The notes under the pieces were generated by a model that was not told the origin of the DNA, made no database searches, and was given only the letters and a program-made list of their open reading frames with translations. A DNA stretch of 64,000 nt from Candidatus Kapaibacterium sp. (GTDB lineage: Bacteria; Bacteroidota; Ignavibacteria; Kapaibacteriales; Kapaibacteriaceae), in NCBI GenBank assembly GCA_018883125.1, contig VEQR01000001.1, positions 1,497 through 65,496 on the forward strand. Reading direction: 5' to 3'. Of the stretch, positions 18,290 through 58,157 are shown piece after piece (the first letter of the stretch is position 1; each line of letters opens with the position of its first letter). The position numbers and the translations under genes are program-made.

Positions 18290-19900
18290 ATGAAAAACGA
18301 ACCAACGTTCAAGGGGCTTTCCCGCCGGTCATTCATCGCCCGGGCCACGGGAGCCGTTACCCTGCCGATCCTGTTCAATGGTCTGCCCCTTAAGGCCTTT
18401 GATGGCCCGGCTCTGCATGACCTCTACAACGTGGAAGCGGAAACAGATCGCGTACTTGTGCTTGTGCAGCTCAATGGCGGGAATGACGGTCTCAATACGG
18501 TGATCCCGCTCAACGACTATTCGACGTATGCCAAGCTCCGCCCCAACATTGCCATTCCGGAGAAGTCGGCTCTAAAGCTGACGTCCGGTGCCGGACTTCA
18601 TCCGAACATGACCGGTATGCAGCAGCTCTGGGACGAGAAGAAGCTGGGAATCATCCAGGGCGTGTCGTATCCGAATCCCAATCTTTCTCACTTCCGCTCT
18701 ACCGACATCTGGATGAGCGCCAGTGCCTCAAATGTGAATGAGACCACCGGTTGGCTTGGTCGGTATCTGAACATGGAGTATCCCAACTATCCGCAGGGAT
18801 TTCCAAATGCTGCCATGCCGGACCCGATTGCCATTCAAATGGCGGCGGTGGTAGGGCTTTCCCTCACGGGTCTCGAGCACCAGTCGATGGGCATTGCCCT
18901 GCAGGATCCCGAGACGTTCTATCGTCTCGTCAGCGGCACCGATGCCCCGGGATCGGACCTCCCGTCAACCAAGCTTGCCGCTGCCAATATCACCTACGTC
19001 CGCGAGGTGCAAACCAAGTCCATGCAGTTTAGCACCGTCATCAAAGCGGCTGCCGATAAGGCCAAAAACATCGAGACTTATCCAGCCGGAAACAAGCTTG
19101 CCGATCAGCTGAAGGTTGTTGCACGCCTGATTGCCGGTGGACTCAAGACCCGCGTGTACGTTGTGCAGTTAGGGGGCTTTGACACGCACGCCGGCCAGAC
19201 AGATTCAACAGAACCAACGAAGGGTACGCATGCAAACCTGCTGGAGATGGTCTCGCAGGCAATGACCGCATTCCAGCGCGACATCGAAAAGCTTGGTGCC
19301 GCAGACCGCGTTGTTGCAATGACCTTCTCCGAGTTCGGACGTCGCGCAAATTCGAACGAGAGCTATGGAACCGATCACGGCACCTCGGCACCAATGTTCA
19401 TCCTGGGGAGCCCCGTTCAGGAAGGGATCACGGGAACGAGTCCTGACCTCTCAAAACTCAAGGACGACAACCTGCCGATTCAGTTCGACTTCCGTCAGGT
19501 CTATGCCAGCATCCTCGAGCAGTGGTTCGGTGCCAAGAAGTCCGTGGTCAAACAGGTCCTCTTTGACAATTTCGATACGGTCAAGGTGATCAAGGGGCAA
19601 ACCACCTCGGTTGACGAAGCGCCAAGTGTTTCAACACAGGTATTTACTCTCTCACCAGTCGCACCAAACCCAGTGCGCAGCGACGCTTCCGTTTCGTACG
19701 ATCTGCGTTCCGAGGGCATGGTCCATCTGAACCTCTTCGATAATCTCGGCCTGCATGTTGCGACACTTGTGGCTGAGTACCAAGGCGTTGGCTCATACAG
19801 CATACCGCTCACCGCCAGCAACCTTCCGAGTGGATCATACGTCATCGAACTGCGTTTCGGCAATGATCGTGCTCATCAGGTGATGGTGGTGGCGAGGTAG
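18290..19900 (+). CDS. DUF1501 family protein with a Tat signal peptide and a C-terminal T9SS sorting domain
   Basis: Twin-arginine motif LSRRSFIARATGAV. DUF1501 (sulfatase-like) core. C-terminal roughly 90 aa (FTLSPVAPNPVRSDASVSYDL...VHLNLFDNLGLHVATLV...GSYVIELRF) matches the T9SS C-terminal-domain signature. Confidence 0.8.
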   Translation: MKNEPTFKGLSRRSFIARATGAVTLPILFNGLPLKAFDGPALHDLYNVEAETDRVLVLVQLNGGNDGLNTVIPLNDYSTYAKLRPNIAIPEKSALKLTSGAGLHPNMTGMQQLWDEKKLGIIQGVSYPNPNLSHFRSTDIWMSASASNVNETTGWLGRYLNMEYPNYPQGFPNAAMPDPIAIQMAAVVGLSLTGLEHQSMGIALQDPETFYRLVSGTDAPGSDLPSTKLAAANITYVREVQTKSMQFSTVIKAAADKAKNIETYPAGNKLADQLKVVARLIAGGLKTRVYVVQLGGFDTHAGQTDSTEPTKGTHANLLEMVSQAMTAFQRDIEKLGAADRVVAMTFSEFGRRANSNESYGTDHGTSAPMFILGSPVQEGITGTSPDLSKLKDDNLPIQFDFRQVYASILEQWFGAKKSVVKQVLFDNFDTVKVIKGQTTSVDEAPSVSTQVFTLSPVAPNPVRSDASVSYDLRSEGMVHLNLFDNLGLHVATLVAEYQGVGSYSIPLTASNLPSGSYVIELRFGNDRAHQVMVVAR

Positions 19901-27222: not shown

Positions 27223-30200
27223 ATGAAGATTCCGCGCCGATTTACGACGTCAGGAACAACCCCATACGAGATGTTTCGCTACACGATCAGAGAATCGGTG
27301 CTGCGAAACCAAAGCGGTAAAGAGATATTCCGGATGGACCATGTAGAAGTGCCAGAGGCATGGTCGCAGGTTGCCACCGACATTCTCGCTCAGAAGTATT
27401 TCCGCAAGGCCGGAGTACCGGTGACGGATGATGCCGGTGCACCGGTGCTGAATGAGGATGGAACTCCGAAGACCGGGGCCGAAACGTCGGTTCGTCAGGT
27501 GGTCCATCGGCTGGCAGGTTGCTGGCGGTGGTGGGGCGAGAAGTACGGGTACTTTGATACCGTAGAGGACGCTCAGGCGTTTTACGATGAGATCGCCTAT
27601 ATGCTTCTCAAGCAGATGGCCGCACCGAATTCGCCGCAGTGGTTCAACACCGGTCTCAACTTTGCGTATGGAATCACCGGATCGGCGCAGGGACACCTCT
27701 ATGTTGATCCTGACACCAAGACGCTGACACGTTCAGCCGACGCCTATACGCACCCTCAGCCCCATGCCTGTTTCATCCAGTCCGTCAATGATGATCTGGT
27801 GAACGAAGGCGGCATCTTTGATCTCGCAACTCGCGAAGCACGCATCTTCAAGTACGGTTCCGGTACGGGTTCGAACTTTTCCAATCTCCGTGGCGAGAGC
27901 GAGCGACTTTCCGGAGGGGGCGTCTCCAGCGGACTGATGTCGTTCCTGAAGATTTTTGACCGCGCAGCAGGTGCTATCAAGAGTGGTGGTACAACGCGTC
28001 GTGCCGCGAAGATGGTGATCGTAAATGTCGATCATCCGGACATCGAAAAGTTCATCGAATGGAAGGCAAAGGAAGAGGAAAAGGTTGCGGCACTGGTTGC
28101 CGGATCGAAGATCGCATCGACCTTCCTGCACGCCATCTCTGATGCAGCGCAGCAGGGTGGTACGGATGAGCAGACCAACGAGCGTCTGCGCGTGCTTATT
28201 CAGCGTGCACTCAACCGTGGCGTGCCGTACAACATCATCAAGCGGACGCTGGCGCTGATTGATCAGGGCTTTACGAACATCGACTTTGCGCAGTTCGATA
28301 CGCATTACGAGGGCGAAGCCTACAACACGGTTTCGGGTCAGAACTCAAACAACTCTGTTCGGGTGACGAACGACTTCATGGAAGCAGTCATCACTGACAG
28401 TTCGTGGAACCTGACGTGGCGAACAGACAGCACCAAGCACGTCACCGTGCGGGCACGCGACCTGTGGAACAAGATCAACATGAGCTCGTGGAAGAGCGCC
28501 GACCCAGGTCTGCAGTTCGATACCACGATCAACGAATGGCATACATGTCCGAACGACGGTCGTATCAACGGGTCGAATCCGTGCTCGGAATACATGTTCC
28601 TTGATGACACGGCATGTAACCTGGCCTCGTTAAATCTGGCTCACTTCTATGATGAGCCATCGCAGACCATCAAGATCGACGACTACCGTCATGCCGTGCG
28701 AATCTGGACGTCCGTCCTTGAGATCTCCGTTCTGATGGCCCAATTCCCGTCGGCAGAGGTTGCTCAGAATAGCTACGACTTCCGCACGCTTGGCCTTGGC
28801 TATGCCAACCTTGGTACGGTGCTCATGATGATGGGCATCCCGTATGACTCACCAAAGGCTCTTGCGATCTGCGGCGCACTCTCCTCGATCATGACTGGTG
28901 AGTCCTACGCGGCAAGCGCCGAAATGGCGGCCGATGTGGGCCCCTTCCCGAAATACGACAACAACCGCGACGCGATGCTTCGCGTCATCCGGAATCACAG
29001 GCGTGCAGCATACAACGCAGCAGACAGCGAGTTCGAAGGGCTAACGATTACGCCCATGGGTATCAGCGAGGAACTGTGCCCAGCCGACCTAATGGTGGCA
29101 GCTCGCACTGCATGGGACAAGGCACTTGCTCTTGGGGAAGAGCACGGATATCGCAATGCCCAGGCAACAGTGATCGCCCCAACGGGGACGATCGGCTTGG
29201 TCATGGACTGCGACACCACCGGCATCGAGCCGGACTTTGCGATCGTGAAGTATAAGAAGTTGGCCGGTGGCGGTTACTTCAAGATCGTTAACCAGTCAGT
29301 GCATAAGGCCCTTGCCGCTCTCGGATATTCCGATCAGCAGATCGATGATATCGAGAAGTACTGCAAGGGGCATGGCACGCTGATCGGCTGTCCGCACATC
29401 AACCGCCAGTCGCTCAAGGCCCTGAACTTCACCGATGAGGCCATCGACGCTGTCGAACGTCAGCTCGATAGCACCTTCGATGTACGCTTTGTCTTCAACA
29501 AGTACACACTTGGCGAGGAACTCTGCCAGCAGCTCGGCTTCAGCGCGCAGCAGCTTGACGATATGCAGTTCGATATGCTGACCGAACTGGGCTTCTCCTC
29601 GGAGCAGATATCGGAGGTGAACGACTATATCTGCGGTACGATGATGATAGAAGGGGCTCCTCACATCAAGGATGAGCACCTGCCGATCTTCGACTGCGCC
29701 AATAAGTGCGGCAAGCGCGGCGAACGCTACATCGATTACATGGCCCACGTGCGCATGATGGCCGCAGCGCAGCCGTTTATCAGCGGTGCTATCTCCAAGA
29801 CCATTAACATGCCCGCAGAAGCCTCCGTGGACAACGTTGGCGATGTGCACTTGGCTTCGTGGCGACTGATGCTCAAGGCCATTGCGCTCTACCGCGACGG
29901 ATCGAAGCTTTCTCAGCCCCTTAACGCCAGCAACGACAACTTTGATGAGATGGTGCTGTTGGGCGATCAGGACGATTGGGACGAAACCGTCGATCAGAAG
30001 GCCATCCAGAAGGTCATCGTCGAACGCGTCTACCAGCGCGCCGAGCGCCGTCGTCTGCCGAAGCGCCGTCACGGATACGTCCGTGAGGCAACCGTGGGTG
30101 GACACAAGGTGTACATTCGCACAGGTGATTTCGATGATGGCTCGCTGGGAGAGATATTCATCGACATGTACAAGGAAGGTGCATCCTTTAAGGGGCTTCT

Positions 30201-30696
30201 CAACTGCTTTGCCGTTCTAACGTCCAAGGCCCTTCAGTACGGCGTTCCGTTGGACGAACTGGTGGACACCTTCACCTTCACGCGGTTCGAGCCAGCCGGC
30301 TTTGTGGAAGGTCACGAGGCCATCAAGAATGCCACGTCCATTCTCGACTACATCTTCCGTACGCTTGGGTATGACTATCTACAGCGCACCGACTTTGTCC
30401 ACGTACCACAGGTTGATGCAGCTCAATCCAAGGCAAGCCTCGAAACGCCGGTTGCCAGCTCAGAAGCCCCTTCCCAGACTTCAGCAGATGTGATCTCTCC
30501 TGCACCCACCTACAAAGAGGTCATGGAAGCAGTCTCTGGTTCGGTGGATCACGATGGAGCCAAGTCGAAGCTTCTCGATCCCAAGAACATGGGTTACACA
30601 GGAGAGGCTTGTTCAAAGTGCCAATCCACACAGGTTGTTCGAAATGGGGCGTGCACAATGTGCTTGAACTGCGGAACAACTACAGGTTGCTCGTAA
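27223..30696 (+). CDS. nrdJ: Adenosylcobalamin-dependent (class II) ribonucleoside-diphosphate reductase
   Basis: 1157 aa. The N-terminus and core resemble NrdJ throughout, including the active-site region [16 protein letters not shown]. There is a C-terminal Zn-ribbon [22 protein letters not shown]. Confidence 0.92.
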
Positions 30697-30726
30697 AGAC
30701 CCCCAATTGCTACAGAAAATCATGTC

Positions 30727-30762
30727 AAGGGGCCTATCGACTGTCGATTGGCCCCTTTTCGT
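30727..30762 (+). terminator. Rho-independent terminator downstream of nrdJ
   Basis: AAGGGGCCTATCGAC-T-GTCGATTGGCCCCTT forms an imperfect stem of about 14 bp followed by TTTCG. Confidence 0.55.
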
Positions 30763-30794
30763 TGAGCTTTCGGCCAGAATCGGCACGGTTTTTC

Positions 30795-30826
30795 TTGCGA
30801 ATGATAGCCCCGAAAACCTATTTTGG
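30795..30826 (+). promoter_or_regulatory. Putative Bacteroidota-type sigma-A promoter (TTG about -33, TATTTTGG about -7) upstream of the Cys-rich small-protein operon
   Basis: TTGCGA ... (21 nt) ... TATTTTGG matches the TTG / TAnnTTTG consensus described for Bacteroidetes promoters. It lies 40 nt upstream of the first Met of the ORF at 30866. Confidence 0.3.
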
Positions 30827-30865
30827 GGTTCATTGTGTCTGAAAATCTAGATCCATGAACATGCA

Positions 30866-31225
30866 TTGGAGAATTCCATGAAAATGCGTCAAATCGTCCT
30901 GTCGGTAAGCGCACTTTTTGCCTCGACAGCCATCGTCCTTGCCGGGGGAGAGTCCTGTGGCACTAAGGCCGCTTCAGCTTCGGCAAAGTCTGGTTCATGT
31001 TGCTCCATGAAGGCCTCGAACGTCAAGAAGGCATCAATGGACAAGTGCTCCATGGACGCAAAGTCCACCAAGGAGTGCTCGACAGAAAAGGCTGAAAGCT
31101 GCTCAATGGCGAGTTCCAAGAAGAGCGGTTCATGCTGCTCAATGAAGGCCAAGGATGTAAAATCAACATCGACGCAACCAAAGGTCGAAGTTGGTGTTGT
31201 TACACCGGATCAGTCAGGAAAGTAA
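30866..31225 (+). CDS. Small secreted Cys/Ser/Lys-rich repeat protein. The likely start is the MKMRQ Met at about 30878.
   Basis: Sec signal peptide MKMRQIVLSVSALFASTAIVLAGG, followed by a low-complexity region with four repeats of C(C)SM(K/D/A): SGSCCSMKAS, KCSMDAKS, SCSMASSK, SGSCCSMKAK. Confidence 0.5.
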   Translation: MENSMKMRQIVLSVSALFASTAIVLAGGESCGTKAASASAKSGSCCSMKASNVKKASMDKCSMDAKSTKECSTEKAESCSMASSKKSGSCCSMKAKDVKSTSTQPKVEVGVVTPDQSGK

Positions 31226-31332
31226 CGGCGGTCTGAAATACGGGGGGGCTCTCGTGCGTCTAGGCTGAAGCCTGCACGGGCGCTTAACGGACAGGGTCTC
31301 GGCCCTGTTGGAATCACATCTGGAGGAACGCC

Positions 31333-33444
31333 ATGTCCAAAGGCGGAGCTGGAAAAGTTTATTTCGTGTTGTACCTCGCGGTCATCCTCGAGCTCCTCAT
31401 CATCATTGTGGAGCGCGACGAGGCCGAGGAACACCTGATCCGAAAGCAGAAGGAAGCCGAAGAAATCGTGGAGGCTGTGATGGCACAGCTGAACACGGGC
31501 TTTGGTGCCAGCGGCGTTAACGCCCTTCCGCAGGATGAGATCACCCTCCTCGACAAGTCCGTAATGTCGGGCGTGTCCGAGCGTGACCGTCCAAAGGAAG
31601 AACGGGCGTACCAGGTTCGTGTTTCAACGGTGAAGATCAAGGACATCCTAGGTGACGACCTACCTGAAGAACAATCGGAAAAACGTAGGCGTATCGAAGA
31701 AATCATCCGCCTCTTCAACGTTACAAACCTCAGCCTGGTTGATACCCTCAACGAATCGAATGAGGTTGAGCGACTCACTCTTGACCTTGACCCAGACTGG
31801 TTGAAGAGAAAGACCGACGAAGTGTTGCAGAAACTGGGTGGATTGAAAACAATCACGGACGTCCCCGATTATCGCGATGGATTTTCGTTCTTGAAGGCTA
31901 TTGTGCCTGACTCGCTCAATTACAAGGGCAACACTGATCTCGCGAAGTTCCGATTCAGCCCACACTTGACAGCACTTGACAAAGTTGCGTTCGAAAACGG
32001 TATCAAGATCTTTGAGTACACGTTCAAGCAAACCAGTCAAGGGTTATATCGGGTTAGACTGAATTCGAAGACAAACAACATTCTTGGCATTGCCAACCTT
32101 GACAAATCGGCGAGCGATGATCCGGAAGATGTGATTTCGATCGGAACTATCCAACTGACACGTAAGCAGCTCTCGAAGGTAGAGAAGCGCTTGCTCAGTA
32201 CCTTGGGTGCCGAAGTACAGGGTCTTTGCGCCAAGTTTGGGGCATCGTCAGACTACAAATACGTGGAGTTTTCGCAACAGGTTGATGCCGCGATTGAAAA
32301 GCTGAAACACGAAGACCTTGGGCTGAAGTCCAAGTCGGAAAAGATTCGTCGCGCTGAACTCCTCAAGAACATCACGGTTCTGCTCCATGGCGATGCTAAT
32401 CAAATGGAACAGAACAATCCATCGTTTGCCTTCGAAGTGTTCGTGAAGAAGCCGAACATCGAGCGGGCTGAGCCGTGTATTTCGGACTTGTTGGAAGACC
32501 AACGAGTTCTGTCTGGCATCAAAAAGGCCGTCATTCCATTTACGGTCAACAACTTCCGTGGTGATGCTCCACAGGTCTCCGTGACTCCGAGCGACGTCAG
32601 CGTCCGCGTGGTCGCCCAGGGAGACGCAAAGGCAGGGGCTGGAGGTGCGAGAAATCAACCTTTCGAAATTCACGTGGAAGGGCTGGTCACCAACGGCGCT
32701 CCAAAGTCATATACCTTCAAAATCACGAACGTGAATGCGTGTGAAGACGCCGAGCCGGTTTCGAAGATCTCCGTGTTCCCATCGGATCTGAAGAACAAGA
32801 CTGCAATTGATGCCGTGCTAGACAAGCGCGTCTATGCCGGAAAGCCTCTGCGCCTGCCGATTGAACCATCCTCAGGTGGTGAGATTCCTTCCAACCAGTT
32901 CCAGCTGTCATACAATCTTAACGGCGACCAGCAGAACTTTGAAGGCACTACGCCATTACAGATCACCATTCCATGTATCCCAAAGAATCTGTCGGCACTG
33001 AACGTCAAGGTAAAGTGGCGCTACAAGGTCCCGGGATCTCAGTACACTGAGGAAGTGGACCTTTATGATCGAACAGTCAATTCTGCCAAGCAGTCTTCAC
33101 CGGAAATCATCCTTGCAAATACCAGTGAAAACTGGGACGCTAAGAATATGCGTCTTGTGGTCAGCGGTATTGAGGTGATTCCGCCAAAGGTTGATTGTCC
33201 GAACGTCGTGGCTCAGGACAAGGACATCAAGGTTGATGTGAAACTGGACAAGCCAAGCGTAGGCAAGTATCAGGTTATCCAGTCAATTGAGCCCGAAGGT
33301 AGTGGTCGCTATCGTCTCATCCTGACCCTAAAGGGCCCGCGGATGAAGTTCCCAGGCGACAACGTCGAGGCATCCATCACGGCAAGCATTGGTGGAGTAT
33401 CGATCTCTGAGACGAAGACTGTCTCTATCCCCGAATTCCGTTAA
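31333..33444 (+). CDS. Hypothetical bitopic inner-membrane protein (N-terminal TM anchor, coiled coil, large beta-rich periplasmic region). It is the first gene of a four-gene envelope operon.
   Basis: N-terminus GKVYFVLYLAVILELLIIIVERDEAEEHLIRKQKEAEE is a single TM helix followed by a charged coiled coil. The remaining roughly 600 aa are Ig-like and beta-rich. Only a weak GldM/PorM-like architecture is seen. Confidence 0.6.
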   Translation: MSKGGAGKVYFVLYLAVILELLIIIVERDEAEEHLIRKQKEAEEIVEAVMAQLNTGFGASGVNALPQDEITLLDKSVMSGVSERDRPKEERAYQVRVSTVKIKDILGDDLPEEQSEKRRRIEEIIRLFNVTNLSLVDTLNESNEVERLTLDLDPDWLKRKTDEVLQKLGGLKTITDVPDYRDGFSFLKAIVPDSLNYKGNTDLAKFRFSPHLTALDKVAFENGIKIFEYTFKQTSQGLYRVRLNSKTNNILGIANLDKSASDDPEDVISIGTIQLTRKQLSKVEKRLLSTLGAEVQGLCAKFGASSDYKYVEFSQQVDAAIEKLKHEDLGLKSKSEKIRRAELLKNITVLLHGDANQMEQNNPSFAFEVFVKKPNIERAEPCISDLLEDQRVLSGIKKAVIPFTVNNFRGDAPQVSVTPSDVSVRVVAQGDAKAGAGGARNQPFEIHVEGLVTNGAPKSYTFKITNVNACEDAEPVSKISVFPSDLKNKTAIDAVLDKRVYAGKPLRLPIEPSSGGEIPSNQFQLSYNLNGDQQNFEGTTPLQITIPCIPKNLSALNVKVKWRYKVPGSQYTEEVDLYDRTVNSAKQSSPEIILANTSENWDAKNMRLVVSGIEVIPPKVDCPNVVAQDKDIKVDVKLDKPSVGKYQVIQSIEPEGSGRYRLILTLKGPRMKFPGDNVEASITASIGGVSISETKTVSIPEFR

Positions 33445-33471
33445 CAACCATACGTCACGCGAGAACGGCAC

Positions 33472-35208
33472 ATGAATATCCGTAGGTTTTGGACCCTCCA
33501 ACTTGCTTTGATCACTGCACTGATCGCGCAACCATTGATTGCGCAGACTGATGGTGCCTACGTCGGCAAGTTCAAGAGCGTCCTCCGGTCACTCTCCAAC
33601 TATCGTTATGGGGACATCTCTGTCTTCCGTGTTGATGGTCAGTTGTTTGCAGATGTGCAGCGCTATCTTAACCCACCACCAGTGGACAAAACAGGAGCTC
33701 TGGAAAAGCTGGGTAAGAAGGACCAGAACCTTGTTGATGAGATCAAGCGTGCAGTGAAGCGTTCACAGATCTACGAGAAGATCCAAGAGCAACTTGAAGG
33801 GGCTGGATATGCTCCAAACGATCTTGCCGACCAGGATGTACAGAACGTGATTCAGTTCTATCTCGATCAACGGCAATATGAAAGCGAACTGTTCACCGGT
33901 GCATACATCGTAACAACGAAGTATCAGCGCGGCGAAACGGGTGAAAACCTTATCGTCGTGGGTTTGATGAAGACCCGGGTAAAGCCAGCAGGAAACACCA
34001 TTCGTGATCTGCGCGGCGTAAATCCTGGTGACATCATCACGCGTTTCGAACTCACGCGCCTGGATCCGCCTCCTACTTCAGCAAAGTCGTACGATGACAA
34101 AATGTACGGATACCTGAAGGATCAAGTCATTCAGAACAACGTGTTGAACGTCACGCTTGAAGCGCAAGGCATCGATGATCTAGATACACGATTTGTGCGT
34201 CAGGTTTTCGGCAACGCCGTGGGTGTTCCTGAAGATGATGTACAGCAGTATATAAAGATCACAAACGGTATCCCCGTCAGCTATTTCGGTCCGAACGAGC
34301 TGACGATCTCGGCAGCCGACCTGATCTCCTATCGCCGCTACCGACCAGATCCTACACAAAAGACCGTCAAGATGATGGTCATGGACAGCACAGGAACAGA
34401 GTCGGAGCAGGAAGTTGAAGTGACGACATACAACAGTCGTCTGGCCCAATACGGATTCGAACTTCGCTACGGACTCGAGGATGTTAATTATCCTACTCTC
34501 TGGTCCGAGCGCATGTCGCTGAACGCTGTCTGGAGTCAGGCACGTTTGGGCGTAATCCTTCCTACGGCTGGCTGGTCTGACCTTGCTGCATCGTTCGGTA
34601 ACGTACGTACGATGACAAATGCGGGGTTTGGTGTTAATGCAGCACTGGAAGTGCCAATCAAGATCATCGCAGAGTCAGGCGTGTTCAACTTTTCTGGCAG
34701 CTATGTCTTCAACGATGCCGAGAGCACCACTGAGGCAGACGGCTCGTCGCGTAAGCGTCTGGATGAACGGCTTGGTCTTCGCTTCGACCATCTTGTGCGT
34801 TTCCACGCCAGCGCTCAGTACACATTTGCGATCCGCGTTGATGAAAGCAACTTGTTCCGCTTCCGCCTTGGTGGTACGGGGTACAGCATGGAGCGCTGGA
34901 ATGATGTTGACACGGTTACGGCAAACGGCACAGACTCAACGATGTTCCGCAAGTTTGATAGCAAGTTCATTGGCGGTGTGTCGGGAAAGATCGAATTCAT
35001 GAACACGAGCTGGAGTACACCAATGGGTGCGTCACTCCAGTATTTCGACGAAGCAATTCTCGGAAATATCTGGCTTCAAATTCAGGCCTCGCAAAATCTC
35101 GGTTTCCGAGTTGACGTGAACATGTTCACCCCAGTCTTCCGCGATCCTCGGGCCTGGGAAAACAACGCTGTGTTCATGCCGTCCCTTCGTGCTATTCTCA
35201 ACTTCTGA
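33472..35208 (+). CDS. Hypothetical secreted protein, probably an outer-membrane beta-barrel
   Basis: Signal peptide MNIRRFWTLQLALITALIAQPLIAQ. The C-terminal half shows an alternating amphipathic beta-strand pattern and a terminal aromatic (…RAILNF). Confidence 0.55.
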   Translation: MNIRRFWTLQLALITALIAQPLIAQTDGAYVGKFKSVLRSLSNYRYGDISVFRVDGQLFADVQRYLNPPPVDKTGALEKLGKKDQNLVDEIKRAVKRSQIYEKIQEQLEGAGYAPNDLADQDVQNVIQFYLDQRQYESELFTGAYIVTTKYQRGETGENLIVVGLMKTRVKPAGNTIRDLRGVNPGDIITRFELTRLDPPPTSAKSYDDKMYGYLKDQVIQNNVLNVTLEAQGIDDLDTRFVRQVFGNAVGVPEDDVQQYIKITNGIPVSYFGPNELTISAADLISYRRYRPDPTQKTVKMMVMDSTGTESEQEVEVTTYNSRLAQYGFELRYGLEDVNYPTLWSERMSLNAVWSQARLGVILPTAGWSDLAASFGNVRTMTNAGFGVNAALEVPIKIIAESGVFNFSGSYVFNDAESTTEADGSSRKRLDERLGLRFDHLVRFHASAQYTFAIRVDESNLFRFRLGGTGYSMERWNDVDTVTANGTDSTMFRKFDSKFIGGVSGKIEFMNTSWSTPMGASLQYFDEAILGNIWLQIQASQNLGFRVDVNMFTPVFRDPRAWENNAVFMPSLRAILNF

Positions 35209-36629
35209 TGCAAACCTCAATGACGAACATTATGCGCCGATTCTTCATTGCAACTGTCGTTCTTCTGTCGCTGTTAGGGAGTCGTGCAACTACAGTGTTT
35301 GCCCAGGAGGCTGACTCTGCTGTCTACACGCGTCTGACATCGATCGACCCAGAGCTGCTGCAGTACTTTCCTCGCTGGTTTATCTGTGAATCAGACATCC
35401 AAGCGAAGATCTTCAATGCATTCCGAGTACTGGGATATCGCCGAGAGAATCTCGATCAACAGAAGATCGTGGTGACGGCACAGCCAGTAGCCAACTCAGA
35501 GGATCCGTTCGAGATTCTTATCGTTGAGTGCGGTACAGAAAAGATGACCTCGCAGGAGATGTCCAGCAACATTCCAAACATTCTTTCCCGTCTCGCGGAA
35601 GTATCACGGCCATATTGCTATACGGAGATTCCGACGACAACACCGGCATCACAGCCGCAGTCGGAAGCGATCACCAGCTTCCTGCGTCCGAATAACGCGG
35701 CTCATTCGTTCACGTTGTCTGCATTCGAGCAAACGCTGAAGATCGGTAAGTCAGGATTCTGGCTTTCGAACATCATGGGCACTGACCAAACTGGCTACCA
35801 TTTCTGGAATGCCGGCGAAGCTAAGGTTCTTCTTCAGCGTCCATTGTACGTAAACAATGATCAGGAAACACGCCGTGCCATTCCGTATCTGATTAATGCG
35901 CGTATGGGAATGGGTTATCGGATGACGAGCGACCCACGTCAGTCCGGAATCCTGAGTTTCATCCCGGCACGACGCCTAGACGCCGGTTATGGCGGAAAGA
36001 TCGTTACGGCATTGGACTTCAATATGCCGTTCAACCCACGTTTCGGTCTTAGTGTCAACGCAGAGTTGCCACTTGAACCAGTGAAGGCTTCCACGCTGGT
36101 TGATACGACGACGTACGCTTCTACGCCGATTGATTTCGACAGCCGCGTAATCAACGTCGATAATCCGCTTATCGTTGGAAACCCAGTCAGCACGGTTAAT
36201 CTGCTTCGTGCCACGGGCCAAGTCACCATGTTCTACAACATGTGGCTTGACGAAACACGCCCGGAAAACTTCTTCCGTTTTGATCTCGGTGTTAATTACT
36301 ACGAGGTTCGTGAAGCCGCCGTTCTTGCAGATACAGCTACAGGGTATACGACGCTTGCCATCCAAGGTATTTCAGGGTTGCAGACGTGGAAGCCAAACGA
36401 GCTTGGTGATTGGATCTATGCAAAGGTTGAATACCGCAACCAGAGTACGTATCCCTTTGGTGTCGACCTCCAGTATGCCAACCAGACTCTGATGGCCCAT
36501 GCGTATGTGCCTCTTTTTGGGCAATGGCTGTATCTGGAAGCGAAATATGCTCAGCCGCTTCGTGGACTTCGTCCATTTGAACGCGAGCATGTCTTCATGA
36601 TCAGCCCGGTTCTCCGACTCACGTTATAA
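35208..36629 (+). CDS. Hypothetical secreted / outer-membrane protein
   Basis: Signal peptide MRRFFIATVVLLSLLGSRATTVFA. The C-terminal half is beta-rich. Its start ATG overlaps the upstream stop (ATGA). Confidence 0.5.
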   Translation: MQTSMTNIMRRFFIATVVLLSLLGSRATTVFAQEADSAVYTRLTSIDPELLQYFPRWFICESDIQAKIFNAFRVLGYRRENLDQQKIVVTAQPVANSEDPFEILIVECGTEKMTSQEMSSNIPNILSRLAEVSRPYCYTEIPTTTPASQPQSEAITSFLRPNNAAHSFTLSAFEQTLKIGKSGFWLSNIMGTDQTGYHFWNAGEAKVLLQRPLYVNNDQETRRAIPYLINARMGMGYRMTSDPRQSGILSFIPARRLDAGYGGKIVTALDFNMPFNPRFGLSVNAELPLEPVKASTLVDTTTYASTPIDFDSRVINVDNPLIVGNPVSTVNLLRATGQVTMFYNMWLDETRPENFFRFDLGVNYYEVREAAVLADTATGYTTLAIQGISGLQTWKPNELGDWIYAKVEYRNQSTYPFGVDLQYANQTLMAHAYVPLFGQWLYLEAKYAQPLRGLRPFEREHVFMISPVLRLTL

Positions 36630-36640
36630 GTCTATCCCCC

Positions 36641-37972
36641 ATGCACACGATGTGTGCGGTCTGCGGCGTACTGACGAGCCTGTATCTGTTGATAGCGGCC
36701 GTGCCGTCGTATGCACTGCTGCAAGATTCAACCTTGGAACAACGTCGCCGGCTTGCGGAGCATGCCCGGGTGATGTTTCCTCTTGATGGCGTTAAGCTCA
36801 CGATCCAGAACGTTACACTTGCCGCGTTCCCGGAGATAGGCCTGGTTGTTGAGTGTGACGGAGACTGCAAAGTACTCGACACGCTGAAAGCCTCAGCGCT
36901 AACGGTGATGGAGAATGGCGTAAAGCGGCCCGTTACGCGAATTCACAAGATCGACGTTAAGGAACGCGTACCAGTGGACTTCATGTTCGTGCTTGACGTT
37001 ACGGGTACGATGCAGCCATACATCAATGGCGTTCGAAACAACATTGAGGCATTTGTCCAGAATCTCTCCAAGCGAGGTATTGATTACCAGCTTGGCCTAG
37101 TGTTGTACAGCGACGTTGTTGAGGCGATCTATGAGCCAACCGACAGCGTTGGCAAATTCCTCGGCTGGATGAGCAAGGTTCAGGCATTTGGTGGATTTGA
37201 TGAGAAGGAAAATGCTCTTCAGGCCCTCTACGATGCCAGCCGTGCCCGATTCCGTCCGGCCGCCAACCGCGTTGCAGTGCTCGTGTCAGACGCCGGCTTC
37301 CATCAGGTTGGAGAAAGGGGCAGTGGGCGAACAAAGTTCAATGTTGAGACCATGATCGAGCACTTGAACGAGCTAAAGGTGCGCGCTTTTTGTATCGTTC
37401 CGTCAAACCTCAAACCCTATCAACGACTGGCAGAGGGTACAAAGGGTACGATCTTCGATCTGAACCAGTCGTTCGCAAAGATTCTTGATCTCTATTCGCA
37501 GCGACTGACGAATCTTTATACGATCTTTTACAAGAGCGACACGAAGGTTCGTAGCGATTCTATAAATGTTGCTCTTCTGGACGAACGAAAGAGAGAGCTG
37601 GTCAAGCAGATCATCCCGATCGTTGAGATCGGACGGAAGATCATAATTGAAAACCTTCTATTCCCCGTTGCTTCGTCGGTTCTTCCTGATAGCGTTGAAG
37701 AGCTCGAAGTCCTTAACGAATTCATGAAGAGCCGTCCTTCCGTGGTGGTGCGAATAGAAGGTCACACTGACAATACCGGTACTCCAAAGCAGAACAAGGC
37801 GTTGTCGCTATTACGTGCCGAAGCTGTTCGCGCCTACATGCTCAAGAAAGGGCTAGACCCCAAACGACTTATGGCCGTCGGACTTGGCTCAACGAAGCCT
37901 ATCGGTGATAACACAACGGAGTTTGGACGAAAGCTGAACCGACGGACGGAGATCGTGATCGTGGGTAAGTGA
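36641..37972 (+). CDS. VWA-domain protein with a C-terminal OmpA-like peptidoglycan-binding domain
   Basis: VWA region (FMFVLDVTGTM MIDAS-like motif ... AVLVSDAGFH). C-terminal OmpA_C signature (VVVRIEGHTDNTGTPKQNKALSLLRAEAVRAYMLKKG...NRRTEIVIVGK). Confidence 0.75.
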   Translation: MHTMCAVCGVLTSLYLLIAAVPSYALLQDSTLEQRRRLAEHARVMFPLDGVKLTIQNVTLAAFPEIGLVVECDGDCKVLDTLKASALTVMENGVKRPVTRIHKIDVKERVPVDFMFVLDVTGTMQPYINGVRNNIEAFVQNLSKRGIDYQLGLVLYSDVVEAIYEPTDSVGKFLGWMSKVQAFGGFDEKENALQALYDASRARFRPAANRVAVLVSDAGFHQVGERGSGRTKFNVETMIEHLNELKVRAFCIVPSNLKPYQRLAEGTKGTIFDLNQSFAKILDLYSQRLTNLYTIFYKSDTKVRSDSINVALLDERKRELVKQIIPIVEIGRKIIIENLLFPVASSVLPDSVEELEVLNEFMKSRPSVVVRIEGHTDNTGTPKQNKALSLLRAEAVRAYMLKKGLDPKRLMAVGLGSTKPIGDNTTEFGRKLNRRTEIVIVGK

Positions 37973-37974
37973 CG

Positions 37975-38420
37975 CCTTCGGCGTGGGGGACGCTTCGCGT
38001 GGGGGACGCCTTCGGCGTGCGAGACCTTCGGTGCGAGACGCCTTCGGCGTGCGAGACCTGCGGTGCGAGACGCCTTCGGCGTGTGGGACGCTTCGCGTGG
38101 GGGACCTGCGGTGCGAGACGCCTTCGGCGTGCGAGACGCTTCGCGTGGGGGACGCCTTCGGCGTGTGGGACGCCTTCGGCGTGTGGGACCTGCGGTGCGA
38201 GACGCCTTCGGCGTGCGAGACCTGCGGTGTGGGACCTGCGGTGCGAGACGCCTTCGGCGTGCGAGACGCTTCGCGTGGCGTCATCCCGAACGAAGTGAGG
38301 GACCTAGTGTGGGACGCTTCGCGTGTGGGACGGTGGTGTCACTCGTCTCTCGTACCCCGGGCCAAGGCCCGGGGCTATTATGGATGGATTGTCACTTGTC
38401 ACTCGTCACCCGTCACTCGT
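37975..38420. repeat. Mosaic GC-rich minisatellite of three short unit types (GRGACGCCTTCGGCGTGY, GRGACCTGCGGTGY and GRGACGCTTCGCGTGGG). It is followed by the palindrome CCCCGGGCCAAGGCCCGGGG and GTCACTYGTCAC units.
   Basis: Read directly from the sequence. About 19 units occur in irregular order. The first unit type contains a UUCG-loop hairpin (ACGCC-TTCG-GCGT). Confidence 0.9.
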
Positions 38421-39068
38421 CTACATCCCCAGCCCCTTGCCGCGAAATAGCTTGGCATATGCCGCATTGCCGGGGTGGGTGGTATCCATGCAGTTGACCA
38501 CGGTGACCGGACCCATGATGCGGGAGCGGATTTCGAAGGAACCAATAGTGCGTGTGGTGCGCGGGACAATGGTCGAAACATCGACTTGCGAGAGGTTGCC
38601 GACCAAGTAGAGGGTTGCCGGAAGTTCGTTCTTGGTAAGAAGCCCTCCGATCATCGACACGATAACGGACTGCTTGCCAAGAGGGAGCTTCGTTTCGGTC
38701 GACATTGCTTTGCGGAGGTTGCGCCGATACTCTCCAATTGATGCACACCATGGATCCGTCGTTGGCGAACCGATGATCATATCAGTCGTTGCAGTGTCTG
38801 CTCCAATGTCGCGCGTGATAACGTCGATGATACTGTCGGCACGACGCTGCTCAATGCGACTGAAGACCACGGTGTACACAACGCGCTTGGCGCTCTTGAG
38901 CTTTTGACGAGAGAGTACCTCACCCGGCTTGGTGGAATCACGGTATAGCGCGCCCAGGACAACTGCCGTAACGGCCAGGACAGCAACGATGATGTAAAAG
39001 TACAGCCAACCATTCTTTGTGGTTGGCGGCAGCATCGACGCATTGTCGTCAAACTCTTCTGTGCTCAT
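38421..39068 (-). CDS. Hypothetical membrane-anchored protein (N-terminal TM helix, extracytoplasmic domain)
   Basis: 215-aa ORF. The TM helix is WLYFYIIVAVLAVTAVVLGAL. It is the last gene after yebC and purF on the minus strand, and its start is 4 nt from the purF stop. No family was recognised. The GTCACTCGTC repeats supply its last codons. Confidence 0.5.
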   Translation of the reverse strand: MSTEEFDDNASMLPPTTKNGWLYFYIIVAVLAVTAVVLGALYRDSTKPGEVLSRQKLKSAKRVVYTVVFSRIEQRRADSIIDVITRDIGADTATTDMIIGSPTTDPWCASIGEYRRNLRKAMSTETKLPLGKQSVIVSMIGGLLTKNELPATLYLVGNLSQVDVSTIVPRTTRTIGSFEIRSRIMGPVTVVNCMDTTHPGNAAYAKLFRGKGLGM

Positions 39069-45939: not shown

Positions 45940-47397
45940 ATGAGTTCCAAGATCGCCCGACTCGCATCGGACACCGTTGTCTATGGCATTTCGACCGTGC
46001 TGTCGAGGTTTCTGACGTTTCTGCTAACGCCGCTCTTTACGAACTACCTCAGCAAGACAGAGATCGGAGAGGTGGCGGCGATCTACGCGATGATCGCCTT
46101 CGTCAACATCCTCTATTCCTTGGGGATGGAGCCGGCGTTCATGCGGTTCTGGCACAAGGATGACGCAGAGGGGAACCAGCAGGTCTTCACCACGGCATTT
46201 TCAACGGTGGCGGCACTGAGTGTTGCTGTTACACTTGCAACAATCCTGCTGGCTGCGCCTATTGCCAGCTCGCCGATGCTTGCGCTGGGAGGTCAGGGGG
46301 CTCACCTTGTCCAGATCGCCGCGCTCATCCCATTACTCGATGGACTTGTGCTGATACCATTTGCCCAGCTTCGCATGCAGCGGCGTCCGCGTGTCTTTGC
46401 ATCGCTGCGTCTGCTGTCCGTTGTCGTGACCTTCGCCTTCACGCTGCTGTTCGTGGTCGGGTTTGGCTGGCGCATTGAAGGGGCTCTCTGGGCCGGCGTC
46501 ATTGGAAGTGCCACCACGTTTCTGGTGTTTTTACCGGGCATTGTCGGGACGCTTCGGTCAACAGTCTTTTCGGTACGTGGTCTGCTCCGACAGATGCTCG
46601 CGTTCGGTCTGCCCACCGTTCCATCGAATTTCTCGTCGATCATGGTGCAGGTGGCAGATAGACCCATCATGCTGATGCTTACCAGCAGCAGTGTTGTGGG
46701 GATGTATCAAACGAACTTCCGGCTGGCGTTGCCGATGATGATGTTCGTTACGGTGTTCGAGTATGCCTGGAAACCGTTCTACCTGAATCATCGTCACGAC
46801 GACGATGCCAAGCAGACCTTTGCAACCGTCTTCACAGCGTTCACCGCCGTGTGTGGTGCGATCTTCCTTGTTACGTCACTGTTCATTGAATACGTTGTAC
46901 AGCTGCCATTCATTGGTGGACGCTTCGTCAACCCGGAGTATTGGGACGGACTCACGATCATCCCGGTGGTGATGTTCGCCTACTTCTTCAACGGTGTGTT
47001 CATCAACATGGCTGCCGGACTGCATATCGAGAAGCGGACCGGGTTCTTTCCCATTGCCACGATCACGGCAGCCATCGTCAGTGTTTTTGCCACATGGCTC
47101 CTCGTCCCACCATACGGCATCATGGGAGCTGCCTGGGCAAAGGTTCTTGCCTACGTTGTGAGTGCCGTTATGCTGTTCGAATTCTCTCAGCGTGTGTACC
47201 CGATACGCTATGAATGGGGCAAGGTTGGTGTGCTTGTGAGCTCATCGGCCATTGCGTACCTCGGCGTGATCTCTGCTCCGCTTGAGGGCAACTTTATGAT
47301 CGCGGCTCGCGTTGCCGTCATTGCCGCATATAGTTCTGTCGCCTTCATGCTTCTCGGGGGACGACGTTCATCAATCAAGGGGCTGTTTCGGAGATGA
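45940..47397 (+). CDS. Oligosaccharide/polysaccharide flippase (MOP superfamily, Wzx-like)
   Basis: 485 aa with about 12-14 TM helices. The N-terminus IARLASDTVVYGISTVLSRFLTFLLTPLFTNYLSKTEIGE is typical of polysaccharide biosynthesis (PST) flippases. Confidence 0.8.
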   Translation: MSSKIARLASDTVVYGISTVLSRFLTFLLTPLFTNYLSKTEIGEVAAIYAMIAFVNILYSLGMEPAFMRFWHKDDAEGNQQVFTTAFSTVAALSVAVTLATILLAAPIASSPMLALGGQGAHLVQIAALIPLLDGLVLIPFAQLRMQRRPRVFASLRLLSVVVTFAFTLLFVVGFGWRIEGALWAGVIGSATTFLVFLPGIVGTLRSTVFSVRGLLRQMLAFGLPTVPSNFSSIMVQVADRPIMLMLTSSSVVGMYQTNFRLALPMMMFVTVFEYAWKPFYLNHRHDDDAKQTFATVFTAFTAVCGAIFLVTSLFIEYVVQLPFIGGRFVNPEYWDGLTIIPVVMFAYFFNGVFINMAAGLHIEKRTGFFPIATITAAIVSVFATWLLVPPYGIMGAAWAKVLAYVVSAVMLFEFSQRVYPIRYEWGKVGVLVSSSAIAYLGVISAPLEGNFMIAARVAVIAAYSSVAFMLLGGRRSSIKGLFRR

Positions 47398-50300
47398 AGA
47401 CTTCTCTCTACCTCATCGTTGCAAGCGTTGTTCTGGTATCGTGCAGTTCGCAGCGTGTTCCGGATGGACCATCGGTGAGTGGACGCAAAGAGTTCGATGA
47501 ACTCAAGCATCGCGACCCGGCGCTTGGCGTGGTTCCCACGGATATGCGTCAACGCGAACTGGCCTTTGCTCAACGACTTGCAGATCAGGTTCTCGAGAGC
47601 AAATCATCCGAAGAAGTGCAGGCGTATGCTTCGTGGAAGTCGGGCGGACCCTGGAACATTGGTGGACGCACCCGGGCAATTGCGTTCGACATTCGCGATG
47701 CGAAGACGATCATCATCGGAGCTGTGTCAGGGGGCATTTGGAAATCGACGGATGCCGGCGCTACATGGCAGATCTGCACAAAGCCGGATCAGCTGCATAG
47801 CGTTGCATGCGTTGCTCAGGACACACGCAAGGGCTTTGAAAACATATGGTATGCCGGCACAGGTGAGATCTACGGTAACTCGGCGCAGATCTCCGGTAAC
47901 GGCATTCTGAAGTCGACAGATAACGGTAATACGTGGAGCCCCTTGCCTTCAACGGTGAGCTCGAGCATTCCGGCAAATCATCAGTTCGCCTATACGTGGC
48001 GAGCTCTTGTTCACTCGCAACGGGATAGTCAGGAAGTGTACGTTGCCACAGCCCGTGCCGGTTTGTATCGATCGACGAATGGTGGGGCTGCGTGGACGGC
48101 AGTCCTTGGCAGCAACTCGATCTTTTCGGACGTGGTCGTTACCTCCAACGGAACCCTCTATGCAGCGTTTGCCGGGTTTACCGGAACGCAGGGCTCGATA
48201 TCATCCCGCTGGGGCGTGTTTCGTAGCACGAATGGTACCACGTGGACGAATGTGACGCCCCCTGACATGAAGAATACCGTCAAGCGCATTGTGCTAGCCC
48301 CTGTGCCGCAGCATCCGGAGCAGATATTCGTGTTGGCGGAAACCCCGGATCAGGGGGCGAAAGGTTCGACGATCTATCGTGGCGAAGAGCGCTTCGAATG
48401 GCACAGTCTGTGGAAGTATACACGCACCTCGGCCGACACCGGAACGTGGGAGAATCGCTCGGCCAACATTCCTTTGACCGATGAGCAGCGGGGTGACTTC
48501 TACTCACAAGGCGGATACGACCTGCTGGTAAAGGTCTCGCCGCATGATTCCAACCTTGTTGTTATCGGTGGCACGAACCTCTATCGTTCGACGGATGGTC
48601 TCATGTCCACCAAGAACACAAAGTGGATAGGGGGCTATTGGAAGCCGACCCCGTCATTCGATAAATACTCATCGTACAAGGACCATCATCCGGACCAGCA
48701 CGATGTGCTGTTTCATCCTGCAAATCCTAAGCAGATGTTCAGTGCAAACGACGGTGGGGTTTATGTGACCGATGATATCCTTGCCGATTCCGTTGTCTGG
48801 CGTGATCTGAACCGTGGATACTTGACGACGCAATTCTACACCGTTGATATTCCAAACATGCCAGGCTTTGAAACCTCGCGCAAGATCATCGGCGGTATGC
48901 AGGATAACTCTGTGTGGTTTCAGCGAGATGAAGACGAGCCCACAACAACTCCCTGGCTACGCGTGGGTGGCGGTGATGGTGCATACAGCTACTTCGTCAG
49001 CGGCGGACCATCATACTCGGTGTACTACTCTTCGCAACAGGGTCGCGTGTACTATGTGCGGTATGATTCCTCCGGCAAAGAGAGTTATCGAAAGCGTATC
49101 GATCCGATCGGACCAAAGGACTACTTGTTCATCAATCCGTATGTACCGCATCCGGTAGATCAACACATGATCTACATGGCGGGTGACAACCAGCTCTGGC
49201 GACTCAACGATGTGAACATGATTCCGGCTGGCAATTCGGATTCAACACTCATCGGATGGGACTCGCTTACGAAGACCAACGTAGGCACGGCGCAGATCTC
49301 GTGTGTACTGGCAACCACCACTGCTGATGGCAAACATCACCGTGTCTTTTATGGCACATCAAGCGGAAAGGTCTATCGGTTGGATTCAGCAGAAAGGGGC
49401 AATCCTACTCCGAAGGACGTTACATCCACCTCGATGCGCAGCGGTGCTTTCATAAATTCCGTGAGCATCGATCCCCGCAACCGAGAGCACGTTGTGGTGT
49501 GTCTGTCCAACTACGGCGTGGTGAGCATCTTTGAAACGTTCGATGCCGGCGACACATGGCAGGCTATCGCTGGGAATCTCGAAGAGAATCTCTCTGGAGT
49601 GGGCAATGGCCCGGCGGTAAACTGGGCAGCTATCCGTCCGTACGATGATAGCATAACGGTGCTGATCGCTGCAACTTCTACAGGACTCTACTTCACGCCG
49701 AGAACCAACGGTATGTCCACGGTGTGGACGCCAACAGCAACCGAAGAACTTGGTAATGTTCCCTGCGACATGGTCGTAACGCGGATGTCGATGAGTCCCA
49801 AGGCCGACAAGACCATTGCCGTAGCTACACACGGACGGGGAACGTGGTGGGGTGAGATCACCTCACTTCCGGCCCGTCCTTCTCGTGTGGAGCTTGCCTC
49901 GCCCCCTGACATGCGTCGGGGCATCCTACCCGACACCGTGCTCACGTGGAAGGCCGCAGCCGGCGCTGTTTCGTACTCGGTCTTTCTTGAATGTGCCGGC
50001 GATACGACGCGGAATGCATCGTATCAGGGAATTCGTGAAACATCTTTCAAGGTGCAGAATCTGAAGCAGGGCCCGGAACGATACACATGGACCGTTGAGC
50101 CGTATGGTGCTGGTGGAGCGGGAGAACGTGCACAGCAGTGGTCCTTTAGCACTGCTATTCGTCCGCCGGCACTGCTGAAGCCAGCCGCCGCCGCAACGGA
50201 TGTGTCACCGGTTGTGCTTGTGTGGGAACGCGTTCCGGGTGCACGGCGGTATGATGTGGAAGTTGCCGCGAACGCGGGTTTTAAGCCCATCGTCGCCAGC

Positions 50301-58156: not shown

Positions 58157-58157
58157 G

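Follow-up and report, generated by a model that had tools for sequence, protein, structure and literature searches.

The question raised by this locus of Candidatus Kapaibacterium sp. is whether five adjacent genes for envelope proteins, here called g1 to g5, encode the parts of one system and, if so, what kind of system that might be. The genes lie in a 64,000-nucleotide stretch of contig VEQR01000001.1 (the window, within which all positions are given), and an earlier note, made from the letters of the window, had proposed them as a tightly coupled cell-envelope operon and a candidate novel trans-envelope system. Trans-envelope machines such as Tol-Pal, Ton, the secretion system of type IX (T9SS) and Glt allow double-membraned bacteria to supply their outer membrane, which lacks an energy source of its own, with energy and material. 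The Bacteroidota are without a recognisable Tol-Pal system, and the ways in which their outer membrane is braced and energised are still being worked out. The best-supported conclusion of our analysis is that the cluster is genuine, deeply conserved and devoid of annotation, and that it is a gene set probably of the trans-envelope type, comprising three new protein families and a new combination of VWA and OmpA_C domains.

A Conserved Gene Set without Annotation

Conservation was assessed in a scan that took one genome per species; 281 genomes contained a relative of g2, and 80 of their loci were compared, with synteny counted only where a locus had sufficient downstream DNA. The g3 gene follows g2 in 64 of 67 loci, g4 in 63 of 66 and g5 in 58 of 63, and the order g2-g3-g4-g5 is colinear in every locus that holds all four genes (61 of 61). 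This order persists at g2 identities down to about 27%, the median identities being 30% for g2, 37% for g3, 46% for g4 and 53% for g5. Synteny in related genomes, which the earlier note had named as a check on its proposal, is thus retained while the flanks drop away: the ribonucleotide reductase gene on the upstream side is found in 48 of the 80 loci and the other flanking housekeeping genes in no more than 32. In two divergent lineages, L081 and L082, the g2 protein is shorter (556 and 621 amino acids) and can be recognised chiefly from its N-terminus, but two barrel genes follow it all the same. Since g2 and two barrel genes persist in lineages as divergent as these, we regard g2, g3 and g4 as the core of the cluster and g5 as a frequent fourth member.

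None of g1 to g4 has a match in Pfam or NCBIfam at E ≤ 1, and none is matched in PADLOC. When g2, g3 and g4 were compared with PDB sequences, both as single sequences and as family profiles, nothing meaningful was found; the g2 profile found no PDB chain, though GldM and PorM are deposited there. An alignment of 62 g2 members had no Pfam match at E ≤ 0.1, and 56 members of the g4 family and 33 of the g3 family had none in Pfam either. Accordingly, g2, g3 and g4 are three new protein families without annotation, kept as a unit across a class-level lineage. The earlier note had looked to a confident hidden Markov model match to GldM/GldN, BatA-E or another characterised family as the result that would count against it, and g1 to g4 have produced no such match; its view that the cluster is not recognisable as gldKLMN, the Bat operon or Tol-Pal also stands, as the hallmark families and gene sets of these systems were not found at the cluster.

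An exhaustive profile search with g2 returned 265 representative clusters among 1.84 billion proteins, a number small enough to mark the family as narrow and lineage-specific. The best g2 homologues, 96 to 78% identical, come from metagenome-assembled genomes named Candidatus Kapabacteria/Kapaibacterium, Ignavibacteria, Chlorobiota or Bacteroidota, and NCBI taxonomy places Kapaibacterium within the Bacteroidota.

Some carriers bear other labels: Patescibacteria, Chitinophaga pinensis, Melioribacter roseus, Bradyrhizobiaceae, Chloroflexota, Hyphomicrobiales and Didemnitutus. The oddly labelled contigs include L002, L006, L011, L020, L036, L037, L045 and L058. Where a reductase gene is present on such contigs its product is 74 to 96% identical to that of the window (L037 holds none), and the odd labels look like binning or naming errors.

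The Transmembrane Helix of g2

By hydropathy, the sole hydrophobic segment of each of the five proteins is N-terminal; that of g2 covers residues 4 to 30. An AlphaFold model of g2 based on 62 sequences (mean predicted local distance difference test score, pLDDT, 80.4) has one long helix at residues 6 to 55, made up of the transmembrane (TM) segment and a coiled coil, followed by mixed alpha/beta domains at 60 to 250, a helical segment at 277 to 352, and an all-beta region at 364 to 703 that forms a rod of about four immunoglobulin (Ig)-like beta-sandwich domains. The predicted topology therefore runs from an 8-residue cytoplasmic tail through the TM helix, the coiled coil (to residue 55) and the alpha/beta and helical domains (60 to 352) to the rod (364 to 703). 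Hydropathy and model agree with the earlier description of a 703-amino-acid protein with an N-terminal TM helix, a coiled coil and a long beta-rich periplasmic region, and together with the fold matches they point to g2 as a bitopic inner-membrane protein and the probable hub of the cluster.

The N-terminus of this protein is conserved to an extent that calls for explanation. Residues K8 to E32 (KVYFVLYLAVILELLIIIVERDEAE) are identical in 76 of 76 orthologues except at I18 (Ile in 59 of 76, Val in the others) and I23 (Ile in 74 of 76); they span the TM helix from end to end, Glu20 included, together with an acidic motif at the periplasmic face. Outside this segment, g2 has diverged to about 30% identity. 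A cause at the nucleotide level is ruled out: entropy in the codons concerned is 1.28 bits at the third position versus 0.016 bits at position 2, so that synonymous sites are free to vary and the target of selection must be the protein rather than the DNA or RNA. Swaps among hydrophobic residues are usually tolerated in TM anchors, and the TM helices of MotB, ExbD, TolR and GldM are enclosed within their stator rings. Because the g2 helix is invariant on all faces, its sequence suggests that it sits fully enclosed by a conserved membrane partner. An invariant helix of 25 residues with a buried Glu also offers a testable handle on that specific partner.

Two other identities for g2 were considered and rejected. 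The 'ILELLIII' stretch recalls a type IV pilin-like signal, but the Glu lies 13 residues past the only Gly and not at +5 from a G/F site. An MCE/PqiAB-like lipid transporter, an idea that came from the polytopic protein encoded 5′ of g2 in variant loci, is not borne out, as there is no MlaD or PqiA match and the fold is Ig-like.

Those variant loci (L051, L052, L066, L083 and L084) encode a polytopic inner-membrane protein of 466 to 498 amino acids directly 5′ of the g2 homologue, and no barrel or VWA-OmpA genes lie nearby. One membrane hairpin of the polytopic protein, 'GLRGLRFIPASRPS...SLE', is near-invariant and includes a Glu that does not vary. It has no match in Pfam, NCBIfam or PDB sequences, and its identification as a known stator (GldL, ExbB, TolQ, MotA or ZorA) is unsupported by the Pfam, NCBIfam and PDB profile searches. 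With just 19 clusters, this family is not a universal partner of g2. The position of g2 directly 3′ of a conserved polytopic protein in this sub-clade does indicate that g2 pairs with membrane proteins, although a motor is not thereby identified.

Parts of g2 also occur by themselves in other proteins, among them the profile-search matches P0375, P0333, P0342 and P0316. A conserved domain with the pattern 'GWYKLRF..KTN..LG' is found in P0375, an 814-amino-acid cargo protein with a T9SS C-terminal sorting domain, and again in stand-alone proteins of about 390 amino acids; elsewhere, an Ig rod of the g2 type is fused to TPR repeats.

Two Predicted Outer-Membrane Barrels and a VWA-OmpA_C Protein

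The products of g3, g4 and g5 have signal peptides of the signal peptidase I type and are not lipoproteins. The AlphaFold model of g4 (pLDDT 80.5) consists of an N-terminal alpha/beta periplasmic domain at about 36 to 141 and, at about 166 to 473, a barrel with some 14 long strands that makes up the C-terminal part. The folds closest to this barrel are PorV, OmpG, FadL and BamG, at sequence identities of 9 to 13%, and by fold comparison it belongs with the 14-stranded barrels of the PorP/SprF, PorV and FadL type. Since the match to PorV barely exceeds those to OmpG and FadL, we take this to be the generic 14-strand barrel fold; neither g3 nor g4 falls within the PorP_SprF, FadL/Toluene_X or PorV models of Pfam and NCBIfam, and the 56 g4 and 33 g3 family members are negative as well. 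The g3 protein has a periplasmic N-terminal region of about 300 amino acids and a C-terminal half homologous to the g4 barrel (BLASTP E = 1e-4; HHalign 96.7 to 97.1%, E = 6e-11 over 181 columns). It ends in ...NF, as the earlier note had seen, and the C-terminal Phe is present in 62 of 66 g3 orthologues. A C-terminal Phe is the classic outer-membrane beta-signal. Signal peptides, the g4 model and the homology between g3 and g4 all bear out the earlier description of two exported proteins with outer-membrane-like, beta-rich C-terminal halves, and we consider g3 and g4 to be probable paralogous outer-membrane barrels, the barrel of g3 being assigned through its homology to g4. Barrels of the FadL, PorV and BamG kind differ from these two, which carry periplasmic N-terminal domains of 100 to 300 residues, are encoded as an adjacent paralogous pair and have no Pfam or NCBIfam membership.

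Both domains that the earlier note had recognised in the fifth protein exceed their Pfam gathering scores: VWA at residues 113 to 265 with 36.3 bits (cutoff 23.8) and OmpA at residues 341 to 434 with 70.7 bits (cutoff 27.2); a further N-terminal domain lies ahead of the VWA domain. Across 61 sequences the OmpA motifs that contact peptidoglycan (EGHTD, LS..RA and NRRTE) are conserved. The motif D119-x-T121-G-[TS]123, of the metal-ion-dependent adhesion site (MIDAS) type, has an invariant D119 and T121 and a T or S at residue 123 in 55 of 61 orthologues. The protein thus has both a VWA domain with a MIDAS motif, predicted to bind metal, and an OmpA_C domain. Its NCBIfam matches involve the OmpA part only and are all well below the cutoffs, the nearest being YiaD, YfiB, Pal and MotB-type anchors; against Pal_lipo it scores 61.8 bits (cutoff 125.35), and it has no lipobox. 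The PADLOC match is likewise through the MotB-like OmpA part only. Signal peptide and domains together argue that g5 is a periplasmic, peptidoglycan-binding VWA protein. Known systems have no described counterpart of such a barrel pair with periplasmic domains, nor of a VWA-OmpA_C protein.

A Small Secreted Companion

The earlier description of g1 as a Sec-secreted, Cys/Ser/Lys-rich repeat protein of 115 amino acids agrees with its composition and its signal segment: a hydrophobic signal segment stands at its N-terminus, the residues include 24 Ser, 17 Lys and 8 Cys, with two CC doublets among the Cys, and the protein has an internal 'SGSCCSMKA' repeat and an overall richness in Ser, Lys and Ala. 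A g1-like gene (signal peptide, two CC doublets, rich in Lys, Ser, Thr and Ala) lies 5′ of g2 in 51 of 74 eligible loci, and we regard g1 as a probable small secreted protein that often, though not always, accompanies the cluster. Between g1 and g2 is a structured spacer of 107 nucleotides (104 to 108 nucleotides in close relatives) with two hairpins; in an RNAalifold comparison of 11 relatives, 22 pairs were predicted, of which 6 show compensatory double changes, and the spacer matches no Rfam family. The hairpins fit with an expression of g1 above that of g2 to g5, as we would infer from their position after g1.

The spacer hairpins are flanked by invariant AAAATACGGGGGGGC and CATCTGGAGGAACGCC-ATG. 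A GC-rich hairpin is found 3′ of g1 in more distant relatives too.

What the Gene Set May Form

We suggest that g2, g3, g4 and usually g5 constitute a co-functional envelope module of Kapabacteria-type Bacteroidota only, most likely one that assembles a complex reaching from the inner membrane through the peptidoglycan to the outer membrane; our confidence in this reading is about evenly balanced. Co-location of the genes and the predicted topology of their products point to a single physical envelope-spanning complex, and we infer the contacts between its parts, its energy coupling, its substrate and the role of g1. The invariant TM helix of g2 would dock in an inner-membrane partner, and the coiled coil and the rod of about four Ig domains would traverse the periplasm, with the rod's distal end touching the periplasmic N-terminal domains of g3 and g4, the putative paralogous FadL/PorV-like barrels of about 14 strands. 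The OmpA_C domain of g5 would hold peptidoglycan, and its metal-ion-dependent VWA site could clamp another component, bracing the assembly. The job of such a module might be to gate or drive passage through the g3 and g4 barrels, or to affect them in some other way, with the inner membrane in control, and g1, as an abundant small secreted protein, might be its cargo or an accessory. Should the complex prove real, the few envelope-spanning systems would gain a new architecture.

Several observations weigh against this reading. In the main clade, neither a gene for an inner-membrane partner nor one for an energy source lies in cis; L047, L075 and L081 carry no g5 in cis; and 23 of 74 loci have no g1, which one divergent sub-clade lacks. 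The fold matches of g2 are generic Ig arrays, which are uninformative on function, and its length ranges from 541 to about 830 amino acids, which is odd for a ruler-like spanning element. All carriers of the cluster are uncultured metagenome-assembled genomes.

It is possible, though we put this forward tentatively, that g2 is a motor-coupled periplasmic force transducer unlike TonB, TolA and GldM, seated within a proton-conducting stator ring, with its rod energising the barrel pair and g5 bracing the whole. The ring would be formed by an ExbB/TolQ/MotA-like protein encoded elsewhere, or by the polytopic protein of the variant sub-clade with its invariant Glu. With TonB and TolA and their ExbBD and TolQR partners, g2 shares a short cytoplasmic tail, one highly conserved TM helix with a key polar residue, and an extended periplasmic part that, in g2, would reach outer-membrane barrels. 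It differs from them in that its TM helix, VYFVLYLAVILELLIIIV, has no SHLS or Ser-His motif, that the polar residue is a Glu two-thirds along the helix, and that it has no Pro-rich linker and no TonB_C or TolA domain in Pfam or NCBIfam; exbBD and tolQR are not found in cis, and the g3 and g4 barrels have about 14 strands versus the 22 of TonB-dependent transporters. If the module is energised, g2 would represent a new family of force transducers, and the whole an energised outer-membrane transport or secretion system of Kapabacteria that was previously unrecognised.

A parts list of this kind has a counterpart in the Myxococcus Agl-Glt gliding machinery, which combines the GltA/GltB barrels, the VWA protein CglB, the bitopic GltG/GltJ, which extend across the periplasm, and a TolQR-like motor that drives them (PMC13104615). 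The likeness extends to the parts list only, that is, paralogous barrels, a VWA/MIDAS protein and a bitopic inner-membrane protein; the comparison is not one of sequence, and there was no Glt match in the Pfam and NCBIfam scans. Myxococcus belongs to another phylum, and neither AglRQS-like motor genes nor any of the many other Glt components are found near the cluster. Since the VWA domain of g5 is fused to OmpA_C, it should be periplasmic, unlike a surface adhesin.

The same parts could also serve a passive tether that staples the outer membrane to the peptidoglycan and the inner membrane and so preserves envelope integrity, in place of Tol-Pal or Lpp, of which the Bacteroidota are largely devoid, with no transport and no energy. 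We consider this rather unlikely. Bacteroidetes are reported to have no identifiable tol-pal, PorE has been proposed as a tether from the outer membrane to peptidoglycan, and the same study expects further such systems (PMC12204202). The g5 protein has a bona fide OmpA_C domain whose best NCBIfam neighbours are the YiaD, YfiB, Pal and MotB-type anchors, and neither an ATPase nor a motor gene lies in cis. A tether, however, leaves unexplained the invariance of the g2 TM helix on all its faces, the buried Glu included; two large 14-stranded barrels with extra periplasmic domains exceed what it needs; and among the four genes linkage is loosest for g5, whose product is the only one to bind peptidoglycan. 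The resemblance of g5 to the Pal, YiaD, YfiB and MotB anchors lies in the OmpA_C domain with its conserved peptidoglycan-contact motifs; unlike them it is not a lipoprotein, has no barrel or TM anchor, and has the additional N-terminal and VWA/MIDAS domains. Of the tolQ-tolR-tolA-tolB-pal set, the cluster is also without genes like TolQ, TolR or TolB. Nor does the VWA domain make this a Bat operon, which comprises a MoxR ATPase, a DUF58 protein, the VWA proteins BatA and BatB, the TPR protein BatC, and BatD/BatE: no MoxR, DUF58 or TPR gene is present in the cluster, and g5, its sole VWA protein, has a cleavable signal peptide and an OmpA_C domain where BatA and BatB are membrane-anchored.

The known system of the phylum to which the cluster comes closest in architecture is the T9SS, and one might ask whether the genes are a divergent T9SS or gliding sub-module, with g2 as an analogue of PorM/GldM, g3 and g4 as PorP/PorV-like proteins and g5 as a PorE-like anchor serving the T9SS of the organism. 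GldM/PorM is defined by a porP-K-L-M-N operon, a five-helix D1 domain and three beta domains; it is bitopic, its beta domains extend across the periplasm, and it is co-transcribed with porP (PMC5790014), and PorE has an OmpA_C domain (PMC12204202). In the same way, g2 is predicted to be bitopic, with a conserved TM helix in a membrane partner and beta-sandwich domains reaching partners associated with the outer membrane; its gene is probably co-transcribed with a barrel gene; an OmpA_C peptidoglycan anchor is encoded beside it; and the phylum is the same. Genes for proteins with a T9SS C-terminal sorting domain lie in the window, and a g2-type domain occurs in one T9SS cargo, P0375. No member of the g2, g3 or g4 families matches GldM_N, GldM_C, PorP_SprF or any other T9SS model, and g2 is without sequence or profile similarity to GldM/PorM in Pfam or NCBIfam. 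Its N-terminal domains are mixed alpha/beta and not a five-helix up-and-down D1, and about four Ig-like domains stand against the three beta domains of GldM/PorM. None of the roughly 80 loci has gldK-, gldL- or gldN-like genes nearby; at the cluster itself GldL/PorL, GldK/PorK and GldN/PorN are missing in cis, as are a formylglycine-generating-enzyme (FGE)-type lipoprotein gene and a GldL-like gene for a protein with two TM segments. The g3 and g4 barrels have large periplasmic N-terminal domains, the g5 anchor has a VWA domain versus the TPR and beta-propeller of PorE, and the PorV match is barely above those to OmpG and FadL. In sequence, operon context and N-terminal fold, then, g2 is not GldM. 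It may nonetheless work like GldM, and its invariant TM helix is compatible with an enclosing partner, a role that the proton-conducting GldL/PorL ring has for GldM/PorM; that the cluster belongs to the T9SS we think improbable.

It is less probable still that the cluster is devoted to the export and assembly of g1, with g1 as a surface-layer, fibre or matrix subunit (or a metal-binding surface peptide) and g2 to g5 as its secretion and anchoring apparatus, in the manner of curli or Fap. The Sec signal of g1, its repetitive low-complexity sequence and its place just 5′ of g2 in 51 of 74 loci would suit such a machine, as would the conserved hairpins after g1, which resemble the arrangement after major-subunit genes that need expression above that of their machinery. 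However, a whole sub-clade keeps g2 to g5 without g1; g1 lies 107 nucleotides from g2 and is not translationally coupled to it; its sequence is not amyloid-like; and it adjoins the upstream reductase gene equally often.

Finally, the genes might be independent neighbours whose order reflects ancestry (with g3 and g4 as FadL-like channels that take up hydrophobic compounds, g5 as an anchor of the general OmpA type, and g2 unrelated to either), and it is true that the carriers are all of one clade, so that some synteny is expected by descent, and that FadL and OmpG are as near to g4 as PorV is, but this is very improbable given that flanking housekeeping genes are lost much faster than g3 to g5, that the order survives 27 to 30% g2 identity and holds in the divergent L081 and L082, and that stop-start overlap and short gaps are widespread.

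Layout of the Locus and Neighbouring Features

The five plus-strand open reading frames named in the earlier note were all found where it had placed them (Table 1). The coupling it described applies to part of the cluster. Stop and start codons were said to overlap or to lie 12 to 28 nucleotides apart; this is so, or nearly so, from g2 onward, where the g2/g3 gap is 27 nucleotides, the stop codon of g3 overlaps the start codon of g4 in the sequence TGATG, and the g4/g5 gap is 11 nucleotides, and such overlaps and short gaps are widespread. It does not extend to g1, which is set apart from g2 by the 107-nucleotide spacer with its two conserved hairpins. The cluster is accordingly not a tightly coupled five-gene operon: g2 to g5 are closely packed here, though g5 is not adjacent in every locus, and g1 is present in 51 of 74 loci only.

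Table 1. Positions of the Cluster Genes and Associated Features in the Window
Feature	Position	Strand	Remarks
g1	30878-31225	+	115 amino acids from ATG; longest open reading frame begins at TTG 30866
g2	31333-33444	+	703 amino acids
g3	33472-35208	+	578 amino acids
g4	35208-36629	+	473 amino acids
g5	36641-37972	+	443 amino acids
Class II ribonucleotide reductase gene	27223-30696		Upstream flank of the five-gene block
Terminator-like hairpin	30806-30830	+	10-bp stem, T-containing tail; 3′ of the reductase gene (hairpin scan)
Hairpins in g1-g2 spacer	31241-31289 and 31290-31309	+	Two, adjacent
Ribosome-binding site GGAGGAA of g2	31322-31328	+	Invariant; 3′ of the spacer hairpins
g2 codons K8-E32 (KVYFVLYLAVILELLIIIVERDEAE)	31354-31428	+	TM helix with buried Glu20 and acidic juxtamembrane motif

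Because a terminator-like hairpin stands behind the reductase gene, the transcription unit probably begins at g1, and this hairpin is likely its 5′ boundary. The Bacteroidota-type promoter that the earlier note had placed upstream is unsupported: a motif scan found no TAnnTTTG element between 27059 and 42598, and a scan for sigma-70-type promoters found fewer sites than in shuffled controls. There is no credible Rfam match in 30600-38600; the sole match in that interval, inside g3 on the minus strand, scores 20.6 bits (gathering score 37.8; E = 0.13). The guanine-plus-cytosine (GC) fraction is about 0.55 in the window and slightly lower, 0.505 to 0.53, in the cluster.

The hairpin minisatellite reported downstream is present at 37971-38277, where its start coincides with the end of the g5 stop codon. 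It consists of about 18 copies of a palindromic unit of 16 to 18 nucleotides, GACGCCTTCGGCGTGCGA, with higher-order periods of 32, 48 and 130, and produces spurious open reading frames on both strands. It might act as the terminator of the cluster.

The reductase gene on the other side, of the class II (B12-type), lies directly 5′ of g1 or g2 in 48 of 80 loci, a linkage that outlasts that of every other flank; no functional tie between this gene and the cluster is evident.

Elsewhere in the window, three genes encode proteins with a T9SS C-terminal sorting domain (Por_Secre_tail), at 47394-50702 (+), 53401-55002 (-) and 18290-19900 (+). They are a 1102-amino-acid Sortilin/BNR-like protein, a copper-monooxygenase-like protein and, as a weak match, a DUF1501 protein whose gene forms a pair with a DUF1800 gene, and their presence means that the organism probably has a T9SS. 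A second unannotated block of envelope-looking genes lies at 55038-59466 (-); it encodes proteins of 334, 361 and 348 amino acids that have no Pfam match and continues with a FlgD_ig-domain protein (193 amino acids) and a small OMP_b-brl barrel (235 amino acids).

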